From: an uncultured Gammaproteobacteria bacterium
GTDB lineage: Bacteria > Patescibacteriota > Patescibacteriia > UBA2169
NCBI GenBank assembly: GCA_964611875.1
Contig: CAZTBF010000002.1
Span: forward strand, 184,439-248,438
DNA: 64,000 nucleotides
Direction of reading: 5' to 3'
Positions within the stretch are counted from its first letter, which is position 1; every line of letters begins with the position of its first letter. Made by a program: the position numbers and the translations under genes. This document shows, in pieces, positions 26,486 to 49,670 of this stretch. The notes beneath the pieces are model-generated. The model was not told where the DNA came from. It worked only from the letters and a program-made list of their open reading frames with translations, and did not search any database.

Positions 26486-27889
26486 TTACAAGTAATCAAG
26501 TGGGTTTACCCGATTACCATTTGAACGTACCTCAAAGTGAATATGTGGTCCGGTTGATCGTCCTGTTGATCCAATATTTGCAATAACTTCTCCTTTTTTC
26601 ACACGGTCACCTTTTTTAACTAACAATTTACTGCTATGAGCGTATAGTGTGTGCAAACCATTTCCATGGTCAATAACAATGTAGAGACCATATCCACCAC
26701 TATTCCAGCCTGCGGTAATAACCACACCATCTTCTGCTGCATAAATTGGTTGGCCTATTGGTGCACCAATATCAATACCCGTATGGCGCCAACCTCTATA
26801 GTATTGCGTAATACGATGCGAGGTGGTTGGCCAGTTAAATTTGCCAGCCACAGCAGGAGCAGGAGTAAAAATACTCTTAATACTTGCTAAGCCTGATGAG
26901 GTAGTAACCGTAGGGCGAGCTGCTGGTGGGGGAATACCATCTGGGACAATAAGTTTTGCACCAATTTTAAGTTCAGAAGCATCTGCTAATTTATTCACTT
27001 CTAAAATATCTTCTTCTTCAGCTTTGTATTTCGCCGCAATGGCACGGAGCGTATCACCACGTGAGACAGTGTATGTAACACCTGTTACAGGGAGAATAAC
27101 TAACTCTTGTCCTGGTTTAATAAAATCGCGTGGGCCAAGTTTGTTTTCCCACAAAATAGTATTGGTACTGAGTTGGAATTTTTCTGCAATTTCAGAAATG
27201 GTGTCACCATCTTCTACGACATAGGTAATAATACTGTCACGTAGCTGTGGGGTAATATCTGTTGCCAATACATTTGGGCGAACCAGTGAACCAGAATCAT
27301 CGGTAACCAAGGTATTTAATTCATCTACTGGAATATTTCCTGATGGAGCAACTTGGCTACTCACCCCTATATCTGATAATGCAATGGCGTTATTTTCAGC
27401 AACCGGTGCTTGAGATACGGTATCTTCTGAAATAATGCCTTCCTCTACAATGAGTTCAAAATCACTGTTTTGTGCAAGCAGGGTATAGAGGCTTGAATGT
27501 CTGCCTACTTCTTCTGGGCGTACTTCGCGTGCTTTTAGGTTGCTGACCCCTGCAAAGAGTGTGAGTACGGTAAGCCCTCCGTATAACATAACGTTTCGAG
27601 AAAAGTTATCGCCAAATTCGTTGCGGAAATAATCTTGTGCTCGTTTTGTTTTGTGGCTGACCCAGTTTGCTTTGCTATATATAGGAAGTGCGAGGTACCG
27701 AATACTGAATCGTAATACTTTTGAACCAACATATTTTATGACCAACAATACACCACCAATAATTTTAAGCACCAACACAACAATACTACTCAAAAGTCCG
27801 AGTAGTTGTACTGCGTTTTTTTGTGCGAGCATGCGATTTCTCGAATACCCTCGTGTTGCGTTGTAGGTTGGTCTTTTCTTAAATGCCAT
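26486..27889 (-). CDS. Membrane-anchored LysM (x2) / M23 peptidoglycan endopeptidase
   Basis: LysM repeats GDTISEIAEKF and GDTLRAIAAKY. M23 motifs HTGIDI, LYAHSS and GPHIHFEV. Confidence 0.85.
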   Translation of the reverse strand: MAFKKRPTYNATRGYSRNRMLAQKNAVQLLGLLSSIVVLVLKIIGGVLLVIKYVGSKVLRFSIRYLALPIYSKANWVSHKTKRAQDYFRNEFGDNFSRNVMLYGGLTVLTLFAGVSNLKAREVRPEEVGRHSSLYTLLAQNSDFELIVEEGIISEDTVSQAPVAENNAIALSDIGVSSQVAPSGNIPVDELNTLVTDDSGSLVRPNVLATDITPQLRDSIITYVVEDGDTISEIAEKFQLSTNTILWENKLGPRDFIKPGQELVILPVTGVTYTVSRGDTLRAIAAKYKAEEEDILEVNKLADASELKIGAKLIVPDGIPPPAARPTVTTSSGLASIKSIFTPAPAVAGKFNWPTTSHRITQYYRGWRHTGIDIGAPIGQPIYAAEDGVVITAGWNSGGYGLYIVIDHGNGLHTLYAHSSKLLVKKGDRVKKGEVIANIGSTGRSTGPHIHFEVRSNGNRVNPLDYL

Positions 27890-27957
27890 GTGGCGTATCT
27901 AGTAATAGTAGTATAACGTATTTTTGAGGTTTATGTTACATGAAAAACTGATATTTG

Positions 27958-27986
27958 TTGATTTTTTAGCCGAAAAAGCGTATGAT
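27958..27986 (+). promoter_or_regulatory. Sigma70-like promoter of leuS (TTGATT-17-TATGAT)
   Basis: The -10 ends 12 nt before the ATG at 27999 with no SD. This argues against the ORF-track TTG start at 27924. Confidence 0.55.
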
Positions 27987-27998
27987 ATGGGCATTACT

Positions 27999-30900
27999 AT
28001 GAGTTACGACCACAAAGCAATTGAGGCAAAATGGCAAAAACGCTGGAAAGATGAGCGTGTGTTTGAAGTGGATAATACCGTTGATGCTGAAAAGAAAAAG
28101 TACATTTTAGACATGTTTCCGTATCCTTCTGGTGCGGGGTTACACGTTGGGCACCCTGAAGGCTATACTGCAACGGATATTTACTCTCGATATCTACGTA
28201 TGAAGGGTTTTTCTGTGTTGCACCCAATGGGGTGGGATGCTTTTGGCTTGCCTGCAGAAAATTATGCAATTAAATCTGGCGTGCATCCTAAAGAAAGTAC
28301 TGAAAAAAATATAGAAACCTTTACCCGACAAATTCAATCTCTTGGATTTAGTTATGATTGGTCTCGTGAGGTAAATACATCCTCTCCAGAATATTATAGA
28401 TGGACGCAGTGGATTTTCTTACAACTCTACAAAGCAGGATTAGCATATAAAAAGGAAGCACCCGTAAACTGGTGTGATGACTGCCAAACCGTTCTTGCAA
28501 ATGAACAGGTGGTAGATGGAAAATGTGAACGTTGTGGACACGAGGTGATTCAAAAAAATCTTGCTCAGTGGTTTTTTAAGATTACGGGGAATAGTTCTGA
28601 GTTCGAAGGCGATAGTTCAAAGAAAACTAACTATGTTATTTTGCATGGTTATACAGGATCTCCTGATAGTGATTTTCATCCATGGTTAAAATCTGAATTG
28701 GAAGCACGTGGATATTCCGTGCAAGTTCCACTTTTACCGAATACAGATAACCCTACAGTTATGGAACAAGTTTCGTATGTTCTTGAAAACTGTACCTTTG
28801 ATGAGCATACTATTGTATTAGGACATAGTTTGGGGGCAGTTGTTGCACTTAAAGTGTTAGAAACACTTAATAAGCCAATTCAAAAATTAGTATTAGCAGC
28901 TGGATTTATAGAAGCAGAATTTTTAGATAAAGAACGCCCGTTTAAAGATACCTTTGATTGGAGTTTTGATTTTGAACGTATAAAAAAGAATGTCTCTTCA
29001 TATGTATATCTACAAGCTCAAAATGATACAGCTGTGCCAGCACAGCAAGCAGTAGCAATGCAAAAAGAATTGGGAGGTGGTATTGTATCATTTGTTGCAG
29101 AAGATGATCATATTTGTGGTGGTCAAGAACCGACAGTGCTTGAGCATGTGCTCGCAGAGGCTTCAAGTTATCCAGAGCGTTTACTCAATAATTTAGATAC
29201 GCTCGATTGGCCAGATCCTATTAAGCACATGCAACGAAACTGGATCGGAAAAAGCGATGGAGCGGAATTAGAATTTAAAATTTCAAATTCTGAATTTAAA
29301 ATTTCTGTTTTTACTACGCGTCCAGATACGTTATTTGGTGCAACGTACATGGTACTCGCACCAGAGCATGAGCTTGTACAGAAATTGAAAGAAACTATCA
29401 AAAACTGGGGTGCTGTTGAGGACTATATAAAGGAGGCACAATCAAAAAGCCAACTTGAGCGTACAGATCTCGCAAAAGAAAAAACAGGCGTGCCATTAGA
29501 AGGTGTTACCGCAGTAAACCCAGCTACAGGTGAAACTATTCCTGTATGGATTGCGGATTATGTATTAGCTTCGTATGGTACGGGTGCAATTATGGCAGTT
29601 CCTGCACATGATGAACGTGATTTTGCATTTGCTACCAAATATAACTTGCCGATTAAAAATGTTATTGAGCCAGATTTAGGGTATTGGAAATCAGATATAA
29701 GTAGTATTGAAAAAGAGATGCAAGAAGATTTGAATTCTTCTAAAACTCCTGAAAATGAAGCTAAGTGGCAAGAAAAACAAGACAAGGAATTTGAATCATA
29801 TTGTAAAGATGTTAAAGAAGGAAAAATTGTTTATCCTGGACCAGGTAAAATTCTTAACTCTGACATATATGAAGGTTTGTATTCAACAGAAAAGGATGCC
29901 ATTTTTCAAAAACTAAAAGAAAATAGTTTAGGTCATAGTGCTGTTCAACATAAACTCAGAGATTGGCTCATTAGCAGACAACGCTACTGGGGAACACCAA
30001 TTCCTATTGTGTATGATCCAGAAGGGAACCCACATCCAGTGAAAGAGGAACATCTTCCATTAGAACTTCCAACGGATGTTGATTTTAAACCAAAAGGAAC
30101 TTCTCCACTTGGTAGTTCTGAAAGCTACAAAGCATTAGCAGAAAAACTCTACGGAAAAGGTTGGTATTTTGAAATTGATACCATGGATACCTTTGTTGAT
30201 TCATCATGGTACTTTTTGCGATATACAGATGCACATAATGACAAAGTATTTGCATCGCCAGAAGCATTGCAAGCATGGTTGCCAGTAGACACCTACGTTG
30301 GTGGTGCAGAACATGCGGTATTGCATCTTATGTATGCACGATTTTTCTGCATGGCATTACACGATCTTGGGCATCTTTCTTTTGAGGAACCATTTATCAA
30401 ACTCCGCAATCAAGGACTTATCATGGGGCCAGACGGGCAAAAAATGTCTAAGTCACGAGGGAATGTCATTAATCCAGATGAAGTGATTGAAAATCTTGGA
30501 GCAGATACCATGCGTTTGTATGAAATGTTTATGGGGCCCTTGGAAGAATCAAAGCCATGGAGTACGGACGGTATTATTGGAGTGCGTAGATTTATAGAAC
30601 GCGTGTGGCATGCCGAGCAGTTTGTGGTAGAAACTATTGAAGACAAGAAACAATCACAGGATATAGACAGAGGATTACATCAGCTTATTAAGAAAGTACA
30701 AGAAGATATAGAATCTTTTGGTTTCAATACCGCTATTTCACAAGGAATGATTTTTATCAATATGGTGTATAAAGCAGGAGCTATTACTCAAGCACAATGG
30801 GATGTATTTCTCACTGTATTACATCCCTTTGCTCCGCATATCACTAATGAACTATGGGAAAAACGAGGACATACTACCTTGCTTGAAAAAGAGGATTGGC

Positions 30901-31121
30901 CAACATACGATGAATCATTGCTCGTAGAGGATGAAGTGACATACGTGATTCAGGTAAATGGAAAAGTACGTGCCAATATTGTTGCAGCAGCAAATGCTTC
31001 AGAATCAGATATTGTTGCACAAGCGCAAGCAGAAGAAAACGTACAACATCAATTACAAGATAAAAAAATCGTAAAACAGATTTTTGTACCAGGGAAACTG
31101 TTGAATTTTGTAGTGAAGTAG
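27999..31121 (+). CDS. leuS: Leucyl-tRNA synthetase carrying an inserted alpha/beta serine hydrolase domain
   Basis: HVGHP, KMSKS, Zn module CDDC..CERC, CP1 editing domain (TTRPDTLFGATY..AHDERD), and the C-terminal anticodon-binding and tRNA-binding regions. Confidence 0.9.
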   Translation: MSYDHKAIEAKWQKRWKDERVFEVDNTVDAEKKKYILDMFPYPSGAGLHVGHPEGYTATDIYSRYLRMKGFSVLHPMGWDAFGLPAENYAIKSGVHPKESTEKNIETFTRQIQSLGFSYDWSREVNTSSPEYYRWTQWIFLQLYKAGLAYKKEAPVNWCDDCQTVLANEQVVDGKCERCGHEVIQKNLAQWFFKITGNSSEFEGDSSKKTNYVILHGYTGSPDSDFHPWLKSELEARGYSVQVPLLPNTDNPTVMEQVSYVLENCTFDEHTIVLGHSLGAVVALKVLETLNKPIQKLVLAAGFIEAEFLDKERPFKDTFDWSFDFERIKKNVSSYVYLQAQNDTAVPAQQAVAMQKELGGGIVSFVAEDDHICGGQEPTVLEHVLAEASSYPERLLNNLDTLDWPDPIKHMQRNWIGKSDGAELEFKISNSEFKISVFTTRPDTLFGATYMVLAPEHELVQKLKETIKNWGAVEDYIKEAQSKSQLERTDLAKEKTGVPLEGVTAVNPATGETIPVWIADYVLASYGTGAIMAVPAHDERDFAFATKYNLPIKNVIEPDLGYWKSDISSIEKEMQEDLNSSKTPENEAKWQEKQDKEFESYCKDVKEGKIVYPGPGKILNSDIYEGLYSTEKDAIFQKLKENSLGHSAVQHKLRDWLISRQRYWGTPIPIVYDPEGNPHPVKEEHLPLELPTDVDFKPKGTSPLGSSESYKALAEKLYGKGWYFEIDTMDTFVDSSWYFLRYTDAHNDKVFASPEALQAWLPVDTYVGGAEHAVLHLMYARFFCMALHDLGHLSFEEPFIKLRNQGLIMGPDGQKMSKSRGNVINPDEVIENLGADTMRLYEMFMGPLEESKPWSTDGIIGVRRFIERVWHAEQFVVETIEDKKQSQDIDRGLHQLIKKVQEDIESFGFNTAISQGMIFINMVYKAGAITQAQWDVFLTVLHPFAPHITNELWEKRGHTTLLEKEDWPTYDESLLVEDEVTYVIQVNGKVRANIVAAANASESDIVAQAQAEENVQHQLQDKKIVKQIFVPGKLLNFVVK
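28587..29168 (+). other. In-frame ~194-codon YdeN/RBBP9-type serine hydrolase domain inserted in LeuRS
   Basis: NYVILHGYTGSPDSDFHPWLK, GHSLG nucleophile elbow, QNDTAVP (Asp) and EDDHI (His). Flanked by LeuRS motifs QWFFKIT and YPERLLNNLDTLDWPD. Confidence 0.75.
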
Positions 31122-31207
31122 GAAGAAGATATAAGGTATAAGGTGTAAGAAGTAAGATTGTGTTACCACTACTTCTTACACCTTACTTCTTATATCTTTA
31201 TCTTTTT
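31122..31207. repeat. TAAG-rich long imperfect palindrome
   Basis: GGTGTAAGAAGTA pairs perfectly with TACTTCTTACACC, and the arms extend imperfectly to about 30 nt each. Confidence 0.65.
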
Positions 31208-31209
31208 AC

Positions 31210-31806
31210 ATGGAAATTATTCAAGCCTTGGACGTTGATTACCAAGCTATCGCTCAATCGCTACGAGAGGGAAACGTTATTATCTATCCAACTGATACCG
31301 CATATGCACTTGGTGCAGATGCAACCAATGCACAAGGGGTTGCACGAATTTTTGATGTAAAACAACGTGATACAGATAAAACACTATCACTTATCGTTGC
31401 AGACAGAGCCATGGCAGAAACATGGCTCGAGTTTTCTCCACTTGCAACAGAACTTGCTGATACCTATTGGCCAGGTCCACTCACACTAACACTTCCACAT
31501 AAAAAAGAAGGCTTGATGCCCGAAACCATGCATGAAGGTTTTGTTGCGGTACGTATGCCTAATGAAGAACACGCTGTACTCATTGCCGAGGCACTTGGGG
31601 CTCCGATTGTTTCAACTTCTGCAAATACCTCTGGTACCGGTCCACAATATAGTATGCAAGAAGTGGTTGCATCACTTGCGGATAGAGCCGAGCTTGTTTC
31701 ATCTGGCATTGATGCTGGTATGTTACCAAACAAAGGGGTATCAACCATTGTAAAAGTATGGAATAATACAAAGGAAATACTTCGAGAGGGGGTTATTACT
31801 TTATAA
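31210..31806 (+). CDS. tsaC: L-threonylcarbamoyladenylate synthase (TsaC/YwlC-type)
   Basis: Motifs YPTDTAYALGADATN, WPGPLTLTL and VSTSAN. Confidence 0.85.
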   Translation: MEIIQALDVDYQAIAQSLREGNVIIYPTDTAYALGADATNAQGVARIFDVKQRDTDKTLSLIVADRAMAETWLEFSPLATELADTYWPGPLTLTLPHKKEGLMPETMHEGFVAVRMPNEEHAVLIAEALGAPIVSTSANTSGTGPQYSMQEVVASLADRAELVSSGIDAGMLPNKGVSTIVKVWNNTKEILREGVITL

Positions 31807-31819
31807 AAAATAAAAACAC

Positions 31820-33016
31820 ATGCGCGTAAATTTTATTAAAACGGTTAAAACATTATTTGCAACAAAAATTACTCGACAAGTACGAGAATTGTATCTTTCG
31901 AGTGGGATTGTAAATTTTGCGGTTGCCATGGTGGCAATTTTTGAACCTATTTATTTATATAAGCAAGGCTTTAGTTTAACGCAGGTCTTGTATTTTTATC
32001 TTGCCGTATATATAGGATATTTGTTTACCATTTCATTAGGTGCAAAATTTGCGCGGAGATTTGGATATGAAAAAGCAATACTCTTAGGATCTCCATTTCT
32101 TGCGGTGTTTTATATTTCTTTGCACTTGATACAAACAAACCATCTGTTTGTGTATGCAGCCGTTGCTGCCCTGATTATTCAAAAGACATTTTATTGGCCA
32201 GGATACCTTGCTGACTTTGCACGATTTGGACAAAGTAATGAGCGAGGTAGGGAAGTGAGCAATCTGCTCGTACTTACTTCTGCTGTTGCTATCCTTGGAC
32301 CGTTTGTTGGTGGTTTTATTATTAGTACCTGGGGCTTTGGTATGTTATTTACGGTTGCAACCGTTTTAATTCTTGCTTCGAATCTTCCACTTCTTTCAAC
32401 ACCCGAAAAATTTACCCCAGTGCCATTTTCATATAAGGATTCTTTTAAAAGAATGTTCACCAAAGAGAATCGGAGAAACCTTATTGGGTTTTTAGGGTAT
32501 GGGGAAGAATTAATAGCCATGGTTATTTGGCCCATTTTTATTTTTACGGTAATGACTGACTTTTTAGAAATTGGTTCCTTAATTGCTTTAGCAACACTTA
32601 CGACGACCGTGATTATTCTCTTTGTTGGGAAAATGGTTGATGCGGGAAAGCGAGAGAGACGATCAATTTTAAAATTAGGTTCGGTGTTTAATAGTGCTTC
32701 GTGGTTTTTACGTATTTTAGTTGGTGGACCACTTGGAGTATTTTTAGTTGATGCACTTTCGCGCACCACAAAAAATGTTATTGTGGTTCCTATGATGGCA
32801 ATGACCTATGATCATGCAAGTAAGACTAGTGTGATGAAAACCATTATCTTTTTTGAAATGGCACTCATTTTAGGAAAAATTATTGCTATTGTGTTATCGA
32901 TTGTGGCCCTTGTCTTTATACCAAACTCATTTACGTTACTCTTTATTATTTCAGCATTGATGACCTTGCTTTATTCACTTGTTAAGTATGATCCTATTAA
33001 ATTAGGTACCAAATAA
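31820..33016 (+). CDS. MFS-type transporter
   Basis: About 12 hydrophobic helices in a two-halves organisation. Confidence 0.7.
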   Translation: MRVNFIKTVKTLFATKITRQVRELYLSSGIVNFAVAMVAIFEPIYLYKQGFSLTQVLYFYLAVYIGYLFTISLGAKFARRFGYEKAILLGSPFLAVFYISLHLIQTNHLFVYAAVAALIIQKTFYWPGYLADFARFGQSNERGREVSNLLVLTSAVAILGPFVGGFIISTWGFGMLFTVATVLILASNLPLLSTPEKFTPVPFSYKDSFKRMFTKENRRNLIGFLGYGEELIAMVIWPIFIFTVMTDFLEIGSLIALATLTTTVIILFVGKMVDAGKRERRSILKLGSVFNSASWFLRILVGGPLGVFLVDALSRTTKNVIVVPMMAMTYDHASKTSVMKTIIFFEMALILGKIIAIVLSIVALVFIPNSFTLLFIISALMTLLYSLVKYDPIKLGTK

Positions 33017-33987: not shown

Positions 33988-34554
33988 ATGCAGCGATTTC
34001 ATATTATTTTATTTTCAGTTTTTGCAGTTCTTTCTGTTGTCTTTGGTTTTATTCAGATTGGTAAAAATGTAACATTGTCGTTTAATGTTCCTGATGAATT
34101 ATTATCTGAAGAAGCTACGAACACCGTAACACAACAATTCACTGATACTGATCAAGATGGTCTTTCTGATATTGAAGAAATACAGGTGTACTACACAAGT
34201 CCATATATTGCTGATTCAGATTCTGATGGCGTAAGCGATGCTGATGAAGTTGCACTCGGGACAAACCCAAATTGTCCTGAAGGCACGGATTGTTCTGGTG
34301 ATGGAATAGTTCAAAGCACCGAAGTGGATGAGGTGTCCACTGGAGAAATAGACCCAGAAACATTAGAAACGTTAGAAGTGCTCAGCACCATTCAGGGTGG
34401 CGGTATTCCTGATCCAGAGAAAGTTCGTAACGTATTGAGAAGTTCTGGTGTGAGTGATGAAGAACTTGCCGGTGCATCCGATGAAGAACTTTTGGAATTG
34501 ATGCTTGTGGTTATGGAACAAGTTCAAGCACAACTACAGCAACCAGCTGAATAA
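33988..34554 (+). CDS. Membrane-anchored acidic protein with thrombospondin type 3 repeats
   Basis: TM helix IILFSVFAVLSVVFGFIQI, then DTDQDGLSD and DSDSDGVSD. Confidence 0.75.
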   Translation: MQRFHIILFSVFAVLSVVFGFIQIGKNVTLSFNVPDELLSEEATNTVTQQFTDTDQDGLSDIEEIQVYYTSPYIADSDSDGVSDADEVALGTNPNCPEGTDCSGDGIVQSTEVDEVSTGEIDPETLETLEVLSTIQGGGIPDPEKVRNVLRSSGVSDEELAGASDEELLELMLVVMEQVQAQLQQPAE

Positions 34555-34559
34555 CACAC

Positions 34560-37500
34560 ATGAAAAAATCAAAACAAACAAGACATAAAAATCGCATAGG
34601 TATAGGTATTGTTTCAGCATGTCTTGCTTTTTTTGTTTTTGCACAACCTGCACACGCTATTCTTGGTATTGGAGACATTAGCATTACGGCAGGTGACATC
34701 CCTCGTACTATTGAAAAAATTGTAGGGAACATTGTACAGAAGTTTGGATCACGTGCTTTTTATCAAGCATTGAGAAGTGTGACCTATCAATTAGCACAAG
34801 ATACTGCAGTATGGGTTGCCTCAGGGGATAGAGGGAAAAAACCGTTAATTTTTACTGATTTTAAAAAAGGACTCTCAAGTGTGGGTGATGAAGTTGCTGG
34901 AAAGTTTTTGGTAAACCTTTCAAGCTTTGATGGAGGGATCCCTGTTAATTTGTGTAGCTCAGAAAGTTTAAAGAAACGAAGTGCTTTGGTTATTGGAGTT
35001 TCAAAATCGGTTCGTGATTTTGATATTTTTGCAGACACACAATTTGCAGACATAAACAATGATATTGGGCAACGAGGTTGTAGCTTATCAAAAATTAGTG
35101 ACAATGTTACTGAAGCAGCAAAATACTATAAAGAGAGTGCTGAGGCAACCGCACAGAGTTTGAAAAATTTACAAAGTGGTTTTGATACGGGTAAAACCGA
35201 TATTAGTACGTTTTTAGTGTTGCAAGAATATGCATCAAAAGAAAAAGCTGATACAAAATTACAAGTACAACTTGATGCAAGTAAGGGAGTTGTTGAGGGC
35301 AAGGATGCTGTTGGAAATGTCAAAAATGCTGCTGAAGACGTAAAACGTGTCCAAGATCAAATTACCGAAAAAGCAATTAATCCAAATCCTGCACAGGTGA
35401 CTGGAGACATTTTTGTTGATGCATTTCAAATATTTACTAACACTCTTGCACAAACATATTTACAACGTTTGAGTAGTGGATTTTACCCTCTGAGAAAAAC
35501 AGCTTCTCCAGATAGCTTTGTGTCACGTATTGGGGGAGAAGGATCAAGTTCTCGTCGAGCACTGCTTGCAAGTTTTAGTGAATTTTCTCCAGAGAATGTG
35601 TTGGATGTTGGTTCTCCTGGTGAAATTGATTTATTTAGTGAAATGGCATCATGTCCCCCGGGCAATTTGCAATCACCATATCATTGTTTACTGAGTAGAG
35701 GATTACAACAAGCAGTACAAGAAGGTATTACAGTACGACAAGCACTTGAAAGAGGATTGCTTGATCCAAATATGCTGTTCCCGCAAGAGCATGATAACAC
35801 CCAACCAGTGCTTTCTATAGAAAACATTAGAAAGCTTCGCTTTTTGCGAGTAGTGCCTCTTGGTTGGGAAATAGCAGCAGAACGTGCGTATGAGCGTGGA
35901 CAGGTTCGTTTAGGTACGGTGGTGCAGTGTTTTGAAGATAGTCAAAGTCCAAATGACCCACAAGCCCCTGCTTCCTGTGTAACCAGTACGCAAAATCCTG
36001 ATGCAGAAAATCCTTACTACCATTTAATTGATCCAACGTGGTTGCTTGATATCCCACAGCAGTTTTGTCGAGCACAAGGGTATGGCAATATTCCAGAACA
36101 TGAACGCTCTCCAAACAGAACACAGGCTTGTGTTGATTTACAAAGTTGTATTGAAACCGATGCTCAAGGAAATTGTGTTGCCTATGGGTATTGTACTCGT
36201 GAAAGAAACACGTGGCAGTTATCTGGTGAACAGTGTGAAGAACAGTACGCAACCTGTACCACATTTACCGCTTCAGATAATAGTACGCTTTCATTGCTCA
36301 CTAATTCATTAAATACAGAAGGATGTACTCTCCAAAATGCTGCTGGATGCCAATGGTATAGCCGGTTACGTAATCCGAATGAATCAGCTTCAGACAGAAG
36401 TGATGATTGGTATGATTTCCCATCGAATCGTATTTATCTCAATAGTCGTTCACAAAGCTGTGGCGTAAATCAAAAAGGATCAGAAGAAATTATTCCCTTT
36501 ACTCAAGGAATAAATTTAGTAAAGAATGGTGATTTTAGTGAAGATCTTTTTACGAAACGTGTCCCTGCTTCTGAAAATACTGTTGCATACCCAACCTATG
36601 ATGATGGGGGGTGGAAATTTACTGCTCTGAATAATAGTGGGCGTACCATTGATAGTGGTACCGATCCTTTTTATTTGTATCATGATACTCGATATGGTTT
36701 AGAAGCAATTAAGCCTGATCTTGCTGAACAAATTGTTCATTTAAAACCACGTACGTACTATACCCTTTCGTTTGATGTGCAATCATTAGATGAAAATACT
36801 GTTGCTGATGTGCGCGTTCAAATGGCACGATTAGAACAAATACGAAATGTATCCTTTCAAGGAGTAGCAGGAAGTGATACTGCGTATGATACCAGTATCG
36901 AGTCAACGACTTTAGCATTACGTATTGCGAACGTTCCTTCTAGTGAACCTGTTCGGTATGCTGCAACATTTTATAATACAGCACGAAGTGTAAGTACCGT
37001 TAATATTGAACTACGTGGAAATCTTTTATATGACAACATACAACTTGAGCCAATTAGTTTAGCAGAAGGAATTCGTGCAAAAGATCAGGTTGATGCATTT
37101 CTCCAAACAACCACAGGTGCTGTTGCTTCATTAGAGGCAAAGCAAGAATATGTAAACACGGTGCCATCAAATGCAAAAAACATTGCATCTCCAACCACAC
37201 CATATGGGTCATATAATGATAATCAAAAAAATAAACGAGTAGTATTTGCAGAGGCTGACAGTTGTACTGATGTTGAAGCAAGTGCGGTACGGTATACTCG
37301 TGCACGAGATGGGAAACAAACTATTGCACGTCTGACACCAAATGGCTTGTGTGCACAACAATGTAATGGCATGAATCAGTTTCTTGCCATACCAACACCT
37401 ATAGAAAAACTGGTAGATCAAAGTGCGGTTGCACATCGTGCATATTTTATTCCTTCACGCGCACAGTCTTGTCAGGCTCAAGATGTGGGGTGTGAGGTAT

Positions 37501-40500
37501 TTACCAATACGTCGAGTGGTACTGAACAGCGAGAGTATTACAGTAAAATAGAATCATGTGTTGCGGACACAAACCCGAATACCGCAACATTCTTTACTTG
37601 GGAAGGAACTGATACTGCAGGATTTCAATTGCGTGCGTGGCAATTTTTGGCAGAAGAACCTGAATCAAGTACTGATACACAATTGGGTCCGTGTGCTGCA
37701 TTCCCACAAGGGTTACGGCAGCAAGGGGGCATTTCTCCTGAAAATGCACAATGTCAGGGAGTGCAAGTATGTAGCCTAAATCCTGCTGATGAAAATTATA
37801 GTTCGACTTGTCGAACCTATTTAGATGTGAACGGTGTTGAATATACCCGAGACAGCACACGTTTAGTTACAGCATCAAACGAGTGTACTACATACCGACG
37901 AACGAACACGGTTAATGGGGTACAAGAACAATGGTATTTTATTCCAAATGAAGCAAATACTTGTAGACCTACTGCCATTGGGTGTCGTGAATATAAAGGA
38001 GCATTAGGAAATGTGACACAGACTATTTTTAACACTACTTTTGAAAACAATGTCACTGATCAATGGAGTAATGGAACCTTATCACCAGAAGCTATTGTTG
38101 CAGGAGAATCCTCTCTCCGCATTAGTGGGGGGACTGATGTTTCTCGTCCTGTTACCCTTGTAAACCCTGTTGGGAAATCATATCTGTTACGGTTTAATGC
38201 AAAAGCAGAGAATACAAATGGAGTATTAAATCTTATTCGTTTTGGTGTTACCGCTAATGGCACACAGCTCGATAGGTCTTTCATTGATGCTTCGACCGAT
38301 GCTCCTCTTGCACTCACAACAGATTGGCGTTCATATACTGTGGGGCCAGTACTGTATGAATCATTAGGTGGGGAATATGATACACAAAATCCACGAATAA
38401 TAATTCGTGCCCAAAATGGAAATGTCTTTATTGATGATATTGAGTTGGTTGAAGTACAAGATAGATTTTATGTGACCGATCAATCTACTCGAGCACAAGA
38501 AAATGGAGGAACCCAACCAAATGGTTGTTATACACAAAATTCAAATTACACCAATCCCGTATATGCCCGATGTGAAGCCTATACCGATAGCGCACGTAAC
38601 ACCTATTTTGTTGAAACATTTGATCAACTGTTCTCAGAAGAAGCATTGAGCTGTACCGCGGCAATTGTAACGAATAATTACACATATCCGTATAGTGAGC
38701 GATTCTTCCAAAAGAATAGTGTTGCTGCAGCTCCAGAGCTTCCAATAGATGTTCGTGCCGATAGGCTTGAGTATCGTAGATTGGTTGCACAAAATGTGGT
38801 GGTACCACAGGCTGCTGGTTGTACAGAGGTCGGATTACAAAAAACTGATTTGAGTGGTACGTATTGGCAAACAACGTATCGTACCATTGATCCCGATACT
38901 TTTGGACAGACATTGTGCCAAGATGCAAGTGTTGGGTGTGGTTCGTTTACCACAACCGAAGGGGCACAATATACTTTTAGAGATCCTCGTCAAAATGGAA
39001 ACATGTGTGAATGGAGTGCAGAAGCTCGTGGTGGTTTAGGTGGATGGGTTAAACAAGGAAGCGATGACCCGTGTGAAACTAATGATGCTCGCACCTGTCC
39101 TTCGGATCAAAATGCATGTACTGCGTATGCCGCATATAATGACGCAGCAAACATTGGATTAAGTGATACTCTCTTTTATCGTTCAAACACATTAACGAGT
39201 GGAGATTGTCAAAGTGAAGATATTGGTCTTGGTTGTGTGAGTTTCGTAGAACGATATGCAGATGACGGAGCACTCAAGGGTTCGGTATTGCCTGGGCAAG
39301 AACCCGGTATTCGAGTGTTGCAGGGAACACAACAACGACAATGTACTGAATGGCTTGCTCCAACAACAACTTCAACTATAGATGATCCTCGTACCAGAAG
39401 TAAGCGTGTGGTGAGTTATGATATTGGGCGATGTCAAAAATTAAGTCCAACAGGTGAATGTGTTACCTGGGTAGAACCTCTTGATGGAAGTGGGGTATAT
39501 CCTGCTGCGTATCTTGCAGATGATAACCAAACACCAACACGATTTTCTGTGAGCGCATACCAAAACAGATACACGTCAGTGACCGGCAACCCACAAACAC
39601 TGTTTAGTGGTGCATGGGAATATACTGGATATTCTTCTGCTGAACAATATCCAGCAGATGTGTTACAACAGTTTAATGGAGATAACCCAGTACTTGGTGT
39701 TTCTCGTGGAGGAACCTATCGTTGTCCTGCAGGGCAATGTAATGCAACAACACTCTATGCAACAGGATCTTCCTTTGGAACGGCTAATTTAGTTGGTATG
39801 TATGCGGTAATTGAAGATACTGACCTTGCTGGTGAAATACGTGAAATTGTTGGTAATAATCCAGGGCAACTCTTTATTTCTCCTGATTTTCCATTTTCTA
39901 CCGATCCTGAAGGTGCTGCTTTCCGTATTGTTGATGGTTCTGCTATTGAGTGTCGTGCTTACCCAGAAGAAGATGCGCCATTTGACCGTGGAGGTATTCG
40001 AGAGAGAGCAGCGTATACTGATATAGTTGATTTTACCGGTAATGCTGCATTACAAAACCTTACCTTATGTGAAGAAAGTGGTAAGGCATGTAGCTGTTCA
40101 TATAAAAAAGTCCAAACAGATACTGAAACCGTATACCTGAGCAAACAAACAACAAAACAACTTCCAGAGGATACACGTTCAGTAACCGATTTTGATGGAT
40201 GGCAAGGATATTGTTATGAATATGATTATGAGACTTTGGATCCAAATGGTAATCCTGTGTGTTTATCGTGGTGGCCTGTTGATGTTCCTGTTGGGGTAAC
40301 TAATATTTTTGATAATCACCCAAGTGCTGGGTTTGTTTCAAGTCAGCCATTATACTATTGTTTGGATGCTCAAAGTAATTTAAGGCAATCAATTCCAAAC
40401 GTTACTTTTGTTGAAGCAAAGAATAACACGTATGTGCTGGCACTTGAAAATGCAACTGGAAATTCAGTTGATGCTTTTAAAGCACACTTTAATACTGGTA

Positions 40501-43500
40501 CTGGATGGGTGCGACGCGATGCCACGAACCCAAAAGATGGGTATCATTTATTGCAACGTTTAGCAGATACCGATGGCCCTGAAAATGCATCAGGTATTAT
40601 GCAATTTAGTGTAAAACCTGATTCATTCTTTAGTACCTTAAAGGAATATGATATTGATTCAATTGTTTTGAAAGTTCGTAATAGTGAACATCAACGAGAA
40701 TGGCCAGGAGCTGGTGAAGAATTTGCGCTTTCTCGAAAAGGCCTTGCTATGAGCTTATTGACCAATCCTGAAATTGCAGATGAAAATAGGTGGACGGTTT
40801 TATGGTGTGGAGGAAAAGAAGATGCAAAATGTAGTTTTGGTGACGTGTATAGTTGGGATAAATTTAAACCATTTCTTGAACACACCAATGAAATTGTTGC
40901 ACCAAATGCAGAACATCCTGCAGATAACGATTTATGTTGGGGGCAAGCAGAAGTAAATGGTCAAAATATTTCTATAGATGCGAATGGTGGAACAAATATT
41001 TTTGGTATTCGAGCTATCTTTACAGATGAAAATGGTAATGCACCAGCTGGTTCAACGTATGCAACTGTTACTACTCAAGAACCACACTCATTCCTTGGAT
41101 TTGAAGGAGGGTTATGTGACAATACTGGTAGCGGTGGTTGGGTTGATTTTGAAGTTGTTTTTAAAGTACGTGAATGGTGTTCTGCTGTAGCTCAAGTAGA
41201 TACAAGTGGACAAAATGAAGCATGGAGTGGACGATTAGGAGGAAAAGCACAAGTTGCTTCTGGACTCTGTACACTTGAACCAGGGAATGAACGAGCTGCA
41301 TTTTGTTATAGTAATGCAGATTGTGCAGGGGAGAGAACCTGCCAATTGCATTTTGAAGTAGCCGATACTACTGGATTTATGAGTGGTGTCTATCAGGATC
41401 CGACCCAGAGATTCACTTTACAAACGGATGCTCAGCCATTTGGATCTATTGTTCCTCCAACAGATACCTTATTTGATCCAACACAATGGGATTCTCGTGA
41501 TGATACCTATCTTTTTGAACGCCTCGAGAATGGTTCACTTGTACAGGAAGAGCGTACTCTTGAGCCAGGGAAGCAACCTATTTACGTGGAGATTCCACAA
41601 GGGCAAGTACGTGCGGGCACACCCCTTGCATGTACTCGAGGTGCTGAGTGTTTATTACCTCCACATACTAATACTTCTGCTCAATCAGATGCCTTTACTG
41701 GCCTCTCAGGTGGTATTACTGCATTACGTAATTTGTTTACTCGCATTTTTGGTATTTGGATATTTAATCCAGAAACCGTAACCTACGAAGAACGCACCTC
41801 TGAACAGTTAGATATTGGTTTTGATTATTCGCAAGATGCCTCAGATGCTGGTCAATGTCCGGTGATACAAGATATTGAAAAAACAGCAACAGGTGATGCT
41901 ATTGTGTTTGATCCAACAACAGCGAATCCACAAAATTGGAATCCTATTGCAGATAGCTCAGGAAGAATAGCTGGGCGTAATTGTCCTTCCCCATCAGATG
42001 ATGTTGCACGTGCTGGTCGATACTCAATCAACGGACAAGCAGTTCCTCATCTTGCTGGTGTGGTGCAACAGAAACAACAAGTGCAAGTAGGGGAAGAAGT
42101 AAAATTGCAATTTTATGCATTTAATTATAATGGTGAGCAATTACCATTACGTACGATTACTATTGATTGGGGTGATGCTGGTGCCCCAACAATTATTACA
42201 GGTAATTTTAAGAATCATCGACCTGATTGTTCAAACCTTGGTGCAAATTATGGACAAACAGATCGAGCCTGTGATAGCAATTATTTTGAATTTAGACACG
42301 TATACCGAACATTAGGAAATAAATGGCCAATCGTTACTATTGAGGACAATTGGGGTAAACGTACGGTTGCACAGTATGCAGAAACTGGCGAACCAGTATT
42401 AGAAATTTATGATCAGTCTCGTGATATCCCATTAGAGTTTATTAACGTTGCACAACCAAGTGATGCTGCAGAGTTTCAGTGGGTTGCAACACCAAACAAA
42501 CTGGTGGTGAATTCGTTTAGAGTTGTAGTTACAACTATTGGTCAAAATGGAGACGTTTCAACGCAACCTTCTCAAACTGTTTCTGTTTCTGGTGGTGGTG
42601 ATGCAGCATATGAAGGGAACATACGTATTTCTAAAAATACTGACACCTCTATTATTACGATTACAGTACAAGGGTGTAATAATGAAAATCCAGAGCAACC
42701 AGTATGTGGTGCACTCTATAGAAAAAGCGAAGGAAACCCTCCTCGTATTGTCGATAACTTTCGTGTAGATAGTGGTATCGAAACGACCATTAACAAAGCA
42801 CAAGGTTCTGTGGTCACTGCAACATGGGACAGTTTGCCAGAGGCAGAATATTATCAAGTTGAAGTTTCTAAAGATAATGGAACATATGTTGCTGTGCGAC
42901 GTGAGGTGCGTAGCTATGCTGTGGTATATGAGCAACATACAAAAACGACCGATATTCGCATTCGTGCATGTAATGCTGTTGGCTGTGGTGCTCCTACTTC
43001 GATTAAGCGAGTATGGTATACCCCTACTGCGGTAACTGGTTTTGGACATACCCCGACACAACCATATCAAAATACACAAGTTACCGTAACCTGGAGCCAA
43101 AATGTGATTGCAGATCAATACATTGTATCGTATGGATATAATAACAGATCAAAAGTTGAACAATCAGTATCTACTCCGTATTTCACGTTACCTGTACAAT
43201 TTGGGGCAACAAATGCACAAGTGAGGGTGAGTGCTTGTAATACCAACACAACACATTGTGGAAGTGCCTCAAACGAATACACTATACCGTATACGTCCCC
43301 GCAGACAGATTGGCGGATTGCTTTTAGTGCTATTGGTGATCCTGCTGGCACCACCGGATGTGAAAGTCAGTACGGGCAAAACCATATTTGTAGTGCGAGT
43401 GAATTTAACAGTTATGCATTTAATCCTGTTGCATCTATTGATCGATCTACATTGCATATATTTGATACTGACTTACAACAGCGCATTGGACAAAAAGATT

Positions 43501-43754
43501 TTGCAGGGATTAAAGCAACAAAGGAGTACGTGGTAACACAAAATGGAACATATACTTTTTCTATATCAAGTGATGATGGTTCTGAATTTTGGGTGCGAAG
43601 ACAAGGACAACAATTGTTGCATCTAGACAATGGTGGTGACCATGGTACCACAGGGAAACAAGGTGCGGTAACACTTACTCCTGGCACCTATCAGTTGGAA
43701 TTTATTGGTTGGAATAACGATGGTGGTTCTGAATTCCATGTAAATCTTCCATAA
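34560..43754 (+). CDS. Giant (3064 aa) Cys-rich secreted/surface protein with lectin/CBM-like modules, FN3-like modules and C-terminal PA14 domain
   Basis: Signal/anchor IGIVSACLAFFVFAQPAHA. NGDFSE..YDNIQLEP spans ~36515-37055 and a second module ends in IDDIELVEV at ~38035-38460. FN3-like units are at ~42738-43300. PA14-like GTYTFSISSDDGSEFWV..GTYQLEFIGWNNDGGSEF spans ~43300-43751. Confidence 0.9.
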   Translation: MKKSKQTRHKNRIGIGIVSACLAFFVFAQPAHAILGIGDISITAGDIPRTIEKIVGNIVQKFGSRAFYQALRSVTYQLAQDTAVWVASGDRGKKPLIFTDFKKGLSSVGDEVAGKFLVNLSSFDGGIPVNLCSSESLKKRSALVIGVSKSVRDFDIFADTQFADINNDIGQRGCSLSKISDNVTEAAKYYKESAEATAQSLKNLQSGFDTGKTDISTFLVLQEYASKEKADTKLQVQLDASKGVVEGKDAVGNVKNAAEDVKRVQDQITEKAINPNPAQVTGDIFVDAFQIFTNTLAQTYLQRLSSGFYPLRKTASPDSFVSRIGGEGSSSRRALLASFSEFSPENVLDVGSPGEIDLFSEMASCPPGNLQSPYHCLLSRGLQQAVQEGITVRQALERGLLDPNMLFPQEHDNTQPVLSIENIRKLRFLRVVPLGWEIAAERAYERGQVRLGTVVQCFEDSQSPNDPQAPASCVTSTQNPDAENPYYHLIDPTWLLDIPQQFCRAQGYGNIPEHERSPNRTQACVDLQSCIETDAQGNCVAYGYCTRERNTWQLSGEQCEEQYATCTTFTASDNSTLSLLTNSLNTEGCTLQNAAGCQWYSRLRNPNESASDRSDDWYDFPSNRIYLNSRSQSCGVNQKGSEEIIPFTQGINLVKNGDFSEDLFTKRVPASENTVAYPTYDDGGWKFTALNNSGRTIDSGTDPFYLYHDTRYGLEAIKPDLAEQIVHLKPRTYYTLSFDVQSLDENTVADVRVQMARLEQIRNVSFQGVAGSDTAYDTSIESTTLALRIANVPSSEPVRYAATFYNTARSVSTVNIELRGNLLYDNIQLEPISLAEGIRAKDQVDAFLQTTTGAVASLEAKQEYVNTVPSNAKNIASPTTPYGSYNDNQKNKRVVFAEADSCTDVEASAVRYTRARDGKQTIARLTPNGLCAQQCNGMNQFLAIPTPIEKLVDQSAVAHRAYFIPSRAQSCQAQDVGCEVFTNTSSGTEQREYYSKIESCVADTNPNTATFFTWEGTDTAGFQLRAWQFLAEEPESSTDTQLGPCAAFPQGLRQQGGISPENAQCQGVQVCSLNPADENYSSTCRTYLDVNGVEYTRDSTRLVTASNECTTYRRTNTVNGVQEQWYFIPNEANTCRPTAIGCREYKGALGNVTQTIFNTTFENNVTDQWSNGTLSPEAIVAGESSLRISGGTDVSRPVTLVNPVGKSYLLRFNAKAENTNGVLNLIRFGVTANGTQLDRSFIDASTDAPLALTTDWRSYTVGPVLYESLGGEYDTQNPRIIIRAQNGNVFIDDIELVEVQDRFYVTDQSTRAQENGGTQPNGCYTQNSNYTNPVYARCEAYTDSARNTYFVETFDQLFSEEALSCTAAIVTNNYTYPYSERFFQKNSVAAAPELPIDVRADRLEYRRLVAQNVVVPQAAGCTEVGLQKTDLSGTYWQTTYRTIDPDTFGQTLCQDASVGCGSFTTTEGAQYTFRDPRQNGNMCEWSAEARGGLGGWVKQGSDDPCETNDARTCPSDQNACTAYAAYNDAANIGLSDTLFYRSNTLTSGDCQSEDIGLGCVSFVERYADDGALKGSVLPGQEPGIRVLQGTQQRQCTEWLAPTTTSTIDDPRTRSKRVVSYDIGRCQKLSPTGECVTWVEPLDGSGVYPAAYLADDNQTPTRFSVSAYQNRYTSVTGNPQTLFSGAWEYTGYSSAEQYPADVLQQFNGDNPVLGVSRGGTYRCPAGQCNATTLYATGSSFGTANLVGMYAVIEDTDLAGEIREIVGNNPGQLFISPDFPFSTDPEGAAFRIVDGSAIECRAYPEEDAPFDRGGIRERAAYTDIVDFTGNAALQNLTLCEESGKACSCSYKKVQTDTETVYLSKQTTKQLPEDTRSVTDFDGWQGYCYEYDYETLDPNGNPVCLSWWPVDVPVGVTNIFDNHPSAGFVSSQPLYYCLDAQSNLRQSIPNVTFVEAKNNTYVLALENATGNSVDAFKAHFNTGTGWVRRDATNPKDGYHLLQRLADTDGPENASGIMQFSVKPDSFFSTLKEYDIDSIVLKVRNSEHQREWPGAGEEFALSRKGLAMSLLTNPEIADENRWTVLWCGGKEDAKCSFGDVYSWDKFKPFLEHTNEIVAPNAEHPADNDLCWGQAEVNGQNISIDANGGTNIFGIRAIFTDENGNAPAGSTYATVTTQEPHSFLGFEGGLCDNTGSGGWVDFEVVFKVREWCSAVAQVDTSGQNEAWSGRLGGKAQVASGLCTLEPGNERAAFCYSNADCAGERTCQLHFEVADTTGFMSGVYQDPTQRFTLQTDAQPFGSIVPPTDTLFDPTQWDSRDDTYLFERLENGSLVQEERTLEPGKQPIYVEIPQGQVRAGTPLACTRGAECLLPPHTNTSAQSDAFTGLSGGITALRNLFTRIFGIWIFNPETVTYEERTSEQLDIGFDYSQDASDAGQCPVIQDIEKTATGDAIVFDPTTANPQNWNPIADSSGRIAGRNCPSPSDDVARAGRYSINGQAVPHLAGVVQQKQQVQVGEEVKLQFYAFNYNGEQLPLRTITIDWGDAGAPTIITGNFKNHRPDCSNLGANYGQTDRACDSNYFEFRHVYRTLGNKWPIVTIEDNWGKRTVAQYAETGEPVLEIYDQSRDIPLEFINVAQPSDAAEFQWVATPNKLVVNSFRVVVTTIGQNGDVSTQPSQTVSVSGGGDAAYEGNIRISKNTDTSIITITVQGCNNENPEQPVCGALYRKSEGNPPRIVDNFRVDSGIETTINKAQGSVVTATWDSLPEAEYYQVEVSKDNGTYVAVRREVRSYAVVYEQHTKTTDIRIRACNAVGCGAPTSIKRVWYTPTAVTGFGHTPTQPYQNTQVTVTWSQNVIADQYIVSYGYNNRSKVEQSVSTPYFTLPVQFGATNAQVRVSACNTNTTHCGSASNEYTIPYTSPQTDWRIAFSAIGDPAGTTGCESQYGQNHICSASEFNSYAFNPVASIDRSTLHIFDTDLQQRIGQKDFAGIKATKEYVVTQNGTYTFSISSDDGSEFWVRRQGQQLLHLDNGGDHGTTGKQGAVTLTPGTYQLEFIGWNNDGGSEFHVNLP

Positions 43755-49567: not shown

Positions 49568-49573
49568 GTTCAA

Positions 49574-49670
49574 AGGTATAAGGAGTAAGAAGTAAGTAAT
49601 AAGGAATGTGCTATTTCTTATTACTTATTTCTTACATCTTACTTCTTTTCTACTCTTTACGCTCCTTCTT
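49574..49670. repeat. TAAG-rich long imperfect palindrome in the guaA/guaB divergent region
   Basis: AGGTATAAGGAGTAAGAAGTAAGTAATAAGGAAT - GTGCT - ATTTCTTATTACTTATTTCTTACATCTTACTTC. Confidence 0.6.

Follow-up and report, generated by a model that had tools for sequence, protein, structure and literature searches.

A leucyl-tRNA synthetase gene (leuS) that contains a complete serine hydrolase domain in frame was identified in a 64,000-nucleotide stretch of DNA from an uncultured bacterium of the Patescibacteriota (contig CAZTBF010000002.1, positions 184,439 to 248,438 of the forward strand). This whole stretch is referred to as the window. The gene encodes a bacterial-type leucyl-tRNA synthetase (LeuRS), and the inserted segment is almost certainly, in identity and fold, a hydrolase of the RBBP9/YdeN type. 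The features of the gene are given below in window positions, with the basis of each assignment in brackets. LeuRS without an inserted module, and insertion sites without one, are called plain, and sites A to D are defined further below.

27999..31121, plus strand: leuS, bacterial-type leucyl-tRNA synthetase, 1040 aa and a stop codon, in an uninterrupted open reading frame at 27924..31121 (TIGR00396; Pfam; N-termini of orthologues)
28143..28154, plus strand: HIGH signature, HVGH, aa 49-52 (direct reading of the sequence)
28566..28586, plus strand: QWFFKIT strand, aa 190-196, the last host element 5' of the insert (aligned up to residue 198 of T. thermophilus LeuRS)
28587..28628, plus strand: native, host-derived low-complexity linker of 14 aa, GNSSEFEGDSSKKT (matches GNSPSDENLEADRS in P0005/L001 and GSSPNTERLEADKS in P0015/L081 in position and length)
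28629..29168, plus strand: RBBP9/YdeN-type alpha/beta serine hydrolase cassette, aa 211-390 (PF06821; AlphaFold2 (AF2); Foldseek; 65% identity to the module of P0005)
from 28629, plus strand: NYVILHG, aa 211-217, N-terminus of the cassette (direct reading)
28644..28649, plus strand: His216-Gly217, HG motif after strand 1 (H9/G10 kept in at least 90% of module alignment A1)
28827..28829, plus strand: predicted nucleophile Ser277, codon agt, in GHSLG (aa 275-279; 28821-28835) (Ser in 55/55 modules; aligns with the GHS of YdeN and RBBP9)
29025..29027, plus strand: predicted catalytic acid Asp343, codon gat, in QNDTAVP (aa 341-347) (Asp in 52/55 modules, Glu in 3/55)
29109..29111, plus strand: predicted catalytic His371, codon cat, in EDDHI (aa 368-372) (His in 55/55 modules)
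29151-29168, plus strand: LAEASS, C-terminal linker of the cassette (lies within the cassette)
29169..29312, plus strand: host helix YPERLL..DWPD and beta-hairpin into CP1, holding site B (EFKISNSEFKIS), which is plain here (length equal to that of plain orthologue P0015, EFAVKGSKSSIKVFTT)
29235..29714, plus strand: CP1 editing domain, aa 413-572 by Pfam (PF13603, 211 bits; aligns to T. thermophilus LeuRS 197-363)
29313-29330, plus strand: TTRPDT, aa 439-444 (direct reading)
29604-29621, plus strand: AHDERD, aa 536-541, inside GTGAIMAVPAHDERD (direct reading)
29667..29846, plus strand: extra segment at site C, about 53 aa, low-complexity and predicted to be helical, aa 557-616 (gap against T. 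thermophilus LeuRS 364-375; AF2 helices at 560-606)
30441..30455, plus strand: KMSKS signature, aa 815-819 (direct reading)

The ATG at 27999 (MSYDHKAIEAKWQ) is taken as the start of leuS because the resulting N-terminus agrees with those of the orthologues P0005 and P0015, which read MSNYDHKAIEKKWQ or MKDYDHKSIEKKWQ. An in-frame TTG upstream of it, at 27924, is probably not the start. An earlier note, made from the sequence alone, had put the length of the protein at about 1040 aa, and 1040 aa is the length counted from this ATG. The whole protein scores 1010.8 bits against the NCBIfam model TIGR00396 (leuS_bact; cut-off 548.4) in two stretches divided by the insert, and Pfam assigns tRNA-synt_1, tRNA-synt_1_2, the PF13603 editing domain and Anticodon_1. 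Alignment to T. thermophilus LeuRS (1H3N) is colinear, window residues 3-197 corresponding to 4-198 and residues 389-557 to 197-363. The class I signatures are present, as is CP1 after ZN1 with its Thr-rich and conserved Asp motifs. As read from its sequence, the protein is a complete bacterial-type housekeeping LeuRS in which both the synthetic and the CP1 editing sites are complete. Because HIGH, KMSKS, TTRPDT and AHDERD are all retained, the insert is an addition and not a replacement, as the note had proposed. The gene order is LysM-M23 peptidase (opposite strand), leuS, Sua5-YciO-YrdC, MFS transporter and KsgA. The same order is found at locus L081, which encodes a plain LeuRS of 805 aa, and the window gene is therefore regarded as the orthologous housekeeping leuS. 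Two further traits of the protein were observed. The leucine-specific domain (T. thermophilus residues ~580-636) is absent from aa 666-814 (29994-30440), and the ZN2-type positions are without cysteines (IVYDPEGNP against MVHCEACGV, and AEKLYGKGW against TCPKCGGPA).

Exactly 194 codons (28587-29168) separate the end of QWFFKIT at 28586 from the start of YPERLL (aa 391-396) at 29169. The count of about 194 codons in the earlier note was thus accurate, but not all of this segment is foreign. In the orthologues P0005/L001 and P0015/L081 a linker of 14 residues lies at the same place, directly before YPERLL, so the first 14 codons belong to the host and the foreign part is about 180 aa (28629-29168). 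In the numbering of T. thermophilus LeuRS the extra segment falls in frame between residues 198 and 199, past ZN1 and ahead of the helix leading into CP1, which agrees with the position first proposed between the Zn module and the start of CP1.

The assignment to the RBBP9/YdeN type, already made in the note, was upheld by profile and structure comparisons. PF06821 (Ser_hydrolase) matches the insert alone with 41.1 bits and an E-value of 2.3e-10 (cut-off 22), and it matches aa 212-364 of the whole LeuRS with 36.9 bits, between tRNA-synt_1 and PF13603. A phmmer search of the insert against the PDB returned B. subtilis YdeN (1uxo, 4.6e-11) and human RBBP9 (1e-6). The AF2 model of the module, built on a 23-sequence alignment, has a predicted local distance difference test score (pLDDT) of 95.7 and a predicted template modelling score (pTM) of 0.92. 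All Foldseek matches of this model are alpha/beta hydrolases; RBBP9 (7oex, TM 0.83) and YdeN (1uxo, TM 0.84) rank first, well above the others.

Each of the motifs named in the earlier note (HIGH, KMSKS, TTRPDT, AHDERD, NYVILHG, GHSLG, QNDTAVP and EDDHI) was located. The proposed triad corresponds to Ser277, Asp343 and His371, and it was compared across 55 aligned homologous modules, of which 53 lie within a complete or fragmentary LeuRS. Neither Ser nor His varies, and the acid is always Asp or Glu. His216-Gly217 presumably contributes to the oxyanion hole, as in alpha/beta hydrolases generally. The segment is a complete hydrolase domain with an intact Ser-Asp-His triad, looped out from a surface linker between ZN1 and CP1. 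Searches of Pfam, NCBIfam and Foldseek gave no match of the insert to the trans-editing families YbaK/ProX (PF04073), AlaX (tRNA_SAD) and DTD. An intein was also considered and rejected: the Pfam scan contains no Hint or intein family, and the junctions KIT|GNSS..NYV and ..LAEASS|YPE are without splice residues. In the AF2 model of full-length LeuRS the core is confident and the module has a pLDDT of 24-52, because most rows of the alignment carry the module at site B and the site-A copy is almost unaligned.

A whole-protein homologue search was limited to the top 120 clusters at 90% identity, which are mainly LeuRS of Patescibacteria. The hydrolase module is present in 52 of these 120 closest LeuRS clusters, a Nudix box in 16 and both in 8; other LeuRS clusters among the relatives carry Ham1 (PF01725) or a nucleotidyltransferase-like domain (PF10706). 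Plain relatives are about 790-850 aa long. The orthologue comparison suggested in the note thus yielded LeuRS both with and without the module among Patescibacteria relatives. A word-indexed homologue search with the insert only returned 2 proteins, a number that reflects the limits of the word index rather than rarity. A scan of one genome per GTDB species with module alignment A2 gave at least 103 loci, of which 80 were kept, and an exhaustive profile search with the module gave 8178 homologues at E<=1e-3 and 452 at E<=1e-30.

The placement of the modules was measured against the landmarks QWFFKIT, DWP, TTRPDT, AHDERD and LRDW, and the following insertion sites were distinguished.

Site B: hairpin directly before (I/V)xVFTTRPDT; 45 modules
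Site A: between KIT and DWP; 4 modules, namely that of the window and a separate lineage (P0064, P0081 and P0097)
Site C: about 20 residues past AHDERD, in the loop that holds NUDIX elsewhere; 4 modules
Site D: about 25 residues past LRDW; further cases in the library of GTDB representatives
Site A': between YADRLL and IDWP; Curtissbacteria locus L032

Two modules in one LeuRS were observed in P0050 and P0132. The site-C loop after AHDERD holds NUDIX, hydrolase or PF10706 nucleotidyltransferase-like modules in relatives; the extra segment found there in the window may be what is left of a linker, or an extension specific to the lineage.

The site-A placement of the window copy is rare, judging from the sequences collected. 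Among the top-120 proteins and the 80 GTDB loci, no main-clade module other than the window's own lies at this site, that of L032 being near but different. A junction-spanning query for the site-A architecture returned only short fragments of plain LeuRS. In a neighbour-joining tree of the modules, the window copy falls within the site-B clade as sister to P0005 (65% identity). It is 63% identical to P0004 and P0006 and 29-33% identical to the other site-A modules. Since the window copy belongs to the site-B clade and the window's own site B is plain, with the length seen in the plain orthologue, the copy either moved within the gene, to a point about 45 residues before the usual site, or results from a new insertion event involving a closely related cassette. 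At site B of the window there is also an exact 14-nt direct repeat, GAATTTAAAATTTC, at 29271 and 29292 (span 29271-29305, 21 nt apart), which encodes EFKIS-NS-EFKIS. It was considered as an excision scar and set aside, because P0074 has a similar sequence, EFRIQNSEFRIR, at its module-free site B and the length equals that of plain orthologues. We read the repeat as both strands of the native hairpin, encoded with a codon bias.

The 80 loci include metagenome-assembled genomes titled Woesearchaeota, Pacearchaeota and Nanoarchaeota, the archaeal label being taken from the record titles. The module lies at site B in the archaeal-titled loci L002, L003, L004, L006, L007, L009, L013, L014, L016, L017, L043, L044, L049 and L051. 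The LeuRS of L002 is of bacterial type (TIGR00396, 927 bits), and those of the other archaeal-titled loci align colinearly with P0012, a plain LeuRS of bacterial type. The flanking genes checked encode AlaRS, TyrRS/TrpRS and proteins without matches, and are not diagnostic of archaeal origin. Compared with the window, archaeal-titled loci show 52-60% identity in the module and 42-45% in the core (four loci compared), a mismatch that suggests transfer between Patescibacteria and DPANN.

Evidence for the mobility of the module was obtained from comparisons of modules and hosts. A tree of the LeuRS core (750 columns) intermingles plain proteins with those that bear the hydrolase or NUDIX, and the window core is 72% identical to a plain LeuRS and 71% to those with a site-B module. 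Between P0005, with its module at site B, and the plain P0015, the two halves of the protein are 86% and 81% identical, the difference being a precise gain or loss of about 180 aa. For P0028 and P0078, identity reaches 98% in the first 236 aa and 92% in the last 413 aa but is only 71% in CP1, and the inserts are of different kinds, one protein carrying a hydrolase at site B and the other an insert of unknown type at site C. This pattern indicates recombination between close strains in which a cassette, or the entire CP1 region, was swapped. Over 67 LeuRS, pairwise identities of core and module correlate with r = 0.42. The window and L002/L004 (labelled DPANN) share 60% identity in the module and 44-45% in the core; for the window and L054 the values are 48% and 69%, and for L002 and L005 they are 68% and 42%. 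In 62 of 70 loci the module has a lower GC content at third codon positions (GC3) than the remainder of the gene; the mean difference is -0.061, and the extremes are 0.32 against 0.62 and 0.26 against 0.50 (module against host). The window values are 0.183 for the module and 0.286 for the host. The discordance of module and host trees, the precise presence or absence and the lower GC3 together make it very probable that the module is a horizontally mobile in-frame cassette that moves independently of its host gene.

IleRS, ValRS, AlaRS, SecA and TsaD also house modules of this clade, LeuRS being by far the commonest host. The nearest relatives of the ValRS, AlaRS, SecA and TsaD modules beyond their own host type are embedded in LeuRS (44-51% identity). 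IleRS of the Nanosynbacter type (TIGR00392, 708 bits) carry NUDIX and a hydrolase directly before TTTPWT and a second hydrolase about 45 residues further on; the position before TTTPWT is judged to be homologous to LeuRS site B. The IleRS loci L074-L080 (e.g., L080:2438-7057, Nanosynbacter) encode proteins of 1450-1700 aa with the CP1 motif AWTTTPWTLPAN, and their second hydrolase is divergent. Distant members of the family are fused to M1, S51 and S33/S9 peptidases, to NUDIX and to methyltransferase. The distant two-domain proteins P0207, P0253 and P0226 have the order Ser_hydrolase-NUDIX or NUDIX-Ser_hydrolase, echoing the co-insertion of these domains in LeuRS and IleRS, and may point to a shared substrate or pathway.

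Free-standing homologues of about 180 aa begin with Met, stop shortly after the last helix and share 47-55% identity with the window module. The genomic setting was taken for all six free-standing members closest to the LeuRS-embedded modules (55-61% identity), and four of these stand right before leuS.

P0133: followed after 36 bp by a plain leuS on the same strand
P0126: followed after 6 bp by a plain leuS on the same strand, on 11 contigs
P0138: followed after 24 bp by a NUDIX-bearing leuS on the same strand
P0136: head of a string of genes for hydrolase, hydrolase, PF04073 tRNA_edit (YbaK-type), Ham1-like protein and archaeal-type LeuRS (L086:5001-9882)
P0140: no adjoining aminoacyl-tRNA synthetase (aaRS) gene
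P0143: no adjoining aaRS gene

The genes of the L086 string abut or overlap, and the LeuRS encoded there scores 784 bits against TIGR00395. The chance that a random gene lies directly upstream of leuS is estimated at about 1 in 1000, as these genomes have about 1000 genes, and from its occurrence in four of six cases we infer that the arrangement is not due to chance. Serine hydrolase, Ham1 and NUDIX are the three types inserted in LeuRS, and the same three also occur as leuS operon partners, once beside a deacylase family. None of the more distant homologues P0002, P0192 and P0205 lies beside an aaRS gene. A free-standing hydrolase of 189 aa from a more distant branch was observed at L013:1690-2256, about 1 kb upstream of a LeuRS with a site-B module. 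The upstream free-standing genes give comparative support to an extra hydrolytic activity coupled to LeuRS, and functional coupling of the module to LeuRS is considered probable.

Elsewhere in the window, an open reading frame of 3066 aa at 34551-43751 has no Pfam match at E<=1e-4. GMP synthase, encoded at 47783-49624 on the minus strand, is 614 aa long, and GMP_synt_C covers only aa 532-613. We take this length to be about 90 aa above the usual one, so another internal insertion is possible; a guessed middle segment of this protein, the frame of which was unverified, gave no match in Pfam.

The module resembles several known systems in part. RBBP9 and YdeN (PF06821) share with it the compact fold of about 180 aa (TM 0.83-0.84), the HG after strand 1 and nearly equal triad positions (S70/D136/H164 in the module, S75/D138/H165 in RBBP9). 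They are, however, free-standing, whereas the module lies in frame within an aaRS; the sequences are only 21-23% identical, and Glu108 of RBBP9 is not conserved. The CP1 domain of LeuRS, IleRS and ValRS is likewise a hydrolytic domain inserted in the Rossmann fold of a class Ia aaRS, and the module lies at its edges. CP1 has a different fold without a serine nucleophile, and it is universal, fixed in position and intact here, whereas the module is optional, mobile and variably placed. YbaK/ProXp, AlaX and DTD are autonomous hydrolases, either free or fused to aaRS, and a YbaK-type gene is present in the L086 string. Their folds are unrelated to that of the module, for which deacylation is predicted only. 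Inteins also reside in frame in conserved essential proteins with a patchy distribution, precise presence or absence and horizontal spread. The module, in contrast, has no Hint fold, splice-junction residues or homing endonuclease and stays in the mature protein with an enzymatic triad. In aaRS with appended domains (the IleRS-GNAT of NCBIfam NF040702 and the eukaryotic GST, WHEP and EMAPII domains), an extra domain is added and the core function is kept, as here; those domains are terminal, whereas the module is an internal alpha/beta hydrolase that passes from site to site, from one host gene to another and across lineages. As a kind, aaRS with accessory hydrolytic domains are known; what is unusual here is the in-frame mobility together with the association with leuS across both domains of life. 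The earlier note knew of no aaRS with this hydrolase fold, and our literature search likewise yielded no account of a LeuRS with an internal alpha/beta hydrolase, NUDIX or Ham1 domain, nor of the cassette behaviour. In a 2026 survey of domain insertions LeuRS is mentioned only for CP1 itself, and public records label these proteins 'leucine--tRNA ligase' or 'hypothetical protein'.

As a tentative explanation, which we hold to be possible though short of probable, the module is proposed to be a LeuRS-tethered accessory hydrolase that edits aminoacyl products. The domain would act in trans as a tethered hydrolase at high local concentration beside LeuRS. Ser277-Asp343-His371 would attack the carbonyl of an alpha-aminoacyl substrate, and the substrates would be aminoacyl esters or anhydrides made in error by LeuRS, that is, mischarged tRNA-Leu or released non-cognate aminoacyl-adenylate. 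The module would then be a tethered trans-editing factor that supplements CP1. Given the variable insertion point and the occurrence of free-standing versions, it is unlikely that the domain makes up a precisely docked third active site or a new editing site. RBBP9, the member of the family that is characterised best, is an aminopeptidase that depends on a free alpha-amine and passes through an aminoacyl-serine intermediate (PMC8866121). Such chemistry would also hydrolyse aminoacyl esters and anhydrides, and supplementary quality control for LeuRS is favoured for that reason, although the activity on these substrates is itself put forward with some reserve. More doubtful is the wider proposal of a class of serine-nucleophile deacylases for mischarged tRNA-Leu or non-cognate adenylate, dedicated to LeuRS in Patescibacteria and DPANN and moving as a plug-in cassette alongside NUDIX and Ham1, either upstream of leuS or in CP1-proximal loops.

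Several points weigh against accessory editing. To our knowledge, no alpha/beta hydrolase acts as an aminoacyl-tRNA or aminoacyl-adenylate hydrolase. SecA and TsaD also host the module, and two of the six clade-level free-standing genes (P0140 and P0143) are not beside an aaRS gene. Close relatives have plain LeuRS, which makes the module dispensable for LeuRS function. NUDIX and Ham1, the module types inserted alongside it, act on nucleotides rather than on acyl esters, and the peptidase, NUDIX and methyltransferase fusions of distant members would suit a general peptide or metabolite hydrolase equally well. Glu108, which binds the alpha-amine in RBBP9, has no conserved counterpart in the module alignment. 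The full-length AF2 model, with its low module pLDDT (24-52), gives no indication of where the domain lies relative to the tRNA 3' end.

The same fusions and chemistry could be read as a sign of amino-acid supply, in which an RBBP9-like aminopeptidase would free N-terminal hydrophobic residues, Leu foremost, from scavenged peptides to feed LeuRS. Patescibacteria and DPANN are auxotrophic scavengers, and in organisms unable to make amino acids such an enzyme might be kept beside the charging reaction of highest flux. The aaRS hosts of the module charge aliphatic amino acids only (Leu, Ile, Val and Ala), and distant members are fused to M1 aminopeptidase, S51 dipeptidase and S33/S9 peptidase-type hydrolases; RBBP9 itself is an aminopeptidase (PMC8866121). 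The peptidase fusions, however, belong to the distant free-standing-type branch and not to the insert clade, the string with a YbaK-type deacylase and Ham1 suits sanitation better, and channelling of a free amino acid over such a distance is without precedent. Supply is accordingly rated as rather unlikely.

The mobility of the cassette bears on another explanation, equally improbable in our estimate, in which the module is a passenger that has its own job, uncoupled from LeuRS, and rides in conserved essential genes. Surface loops tolerate inserts, conserved flanks could serve as homology arms, and expression is guaranteed in minimal genomes. The many hosts (LeuRS, IleRS, ValRS, AlaRS, SecA and TsaD) and many sites, the occupation of the same LeuRS loops by unrelated modules (NUDIX, Ham1, His_Phos and nucleotidyltransferase-like), the cassette swaps between near-identical LeuRS, the discordant histories of module and host and the frequent gain and loss would all be expected of such a passenger. 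It does not account for the predominance of LeuRS among the hosts. Recombination through leuS homology arms also fails to explain the genes that abut the 5' end of leuS in four of the six cases, because one of these leuS genes is of archaeal type with little shared sequence.

Target-linked detoxification is very unlikely. Here the module, like the NUDIX, Ham1 and nucleotidyltransferase-like inserts, would destroy LeuRS inhibitors that mimic aminoacyl-adenylate (agrocin-84/TM84-like or microcin-C-like). LeuRS is reported to be a target of natural adenylate mimics (PMC5059758). The inserted module types could all act on nucleotide-linked small molecules, PF10706 is an aminoglycoside nucleotidyltransferase family, and the patchy mobile distribution resembles that of resistance genes. 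The enzymes known to detoxify such inhibitors (MccF, MccE and HIT-type) have other folds, however, and the SecA and TsaD hosts are left unexplained. An assembly chimera or a decaying remnant, to which the lower GC3 of the module could have pointed, may be dismissed: the frame is continuous, a 4566-nt stretch (window 27556-32121) is identical with 0 mismatches in the independent Logan assembly of run SRR15635857, the identical LeuRS protein is recorded on a second contig, and the triad is intact, the predicted fold confident and homologous architectures number in the dozens.

Synthetases are textbook cases of the gain of fidelity or function through added domains, among which the alpha/beta hydrolase is undescribed. 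The module appears as an optional, triad-conserved cassette tied to one synthetase across two domains of life, present as an operon partner or as an in-frame insert and exchanged horizontally. Nanosynbacter strains are culturable, so that their IleRS, with NUDIX and two hydrolase modules, is open to experimental study. If the module does not edit, enzyme domains that hop in frame between the loops of essential genes without intein machinery would represent an unusual mode of evolution. If accessory editing by the LeuRS-tethered hydrolase is true, it would bring a new fold and a new chemistry, with a covalent acyl-serine intermediate, into translational proofreading, and it would point to a specific fidelity problem in ultra-small symbionts.

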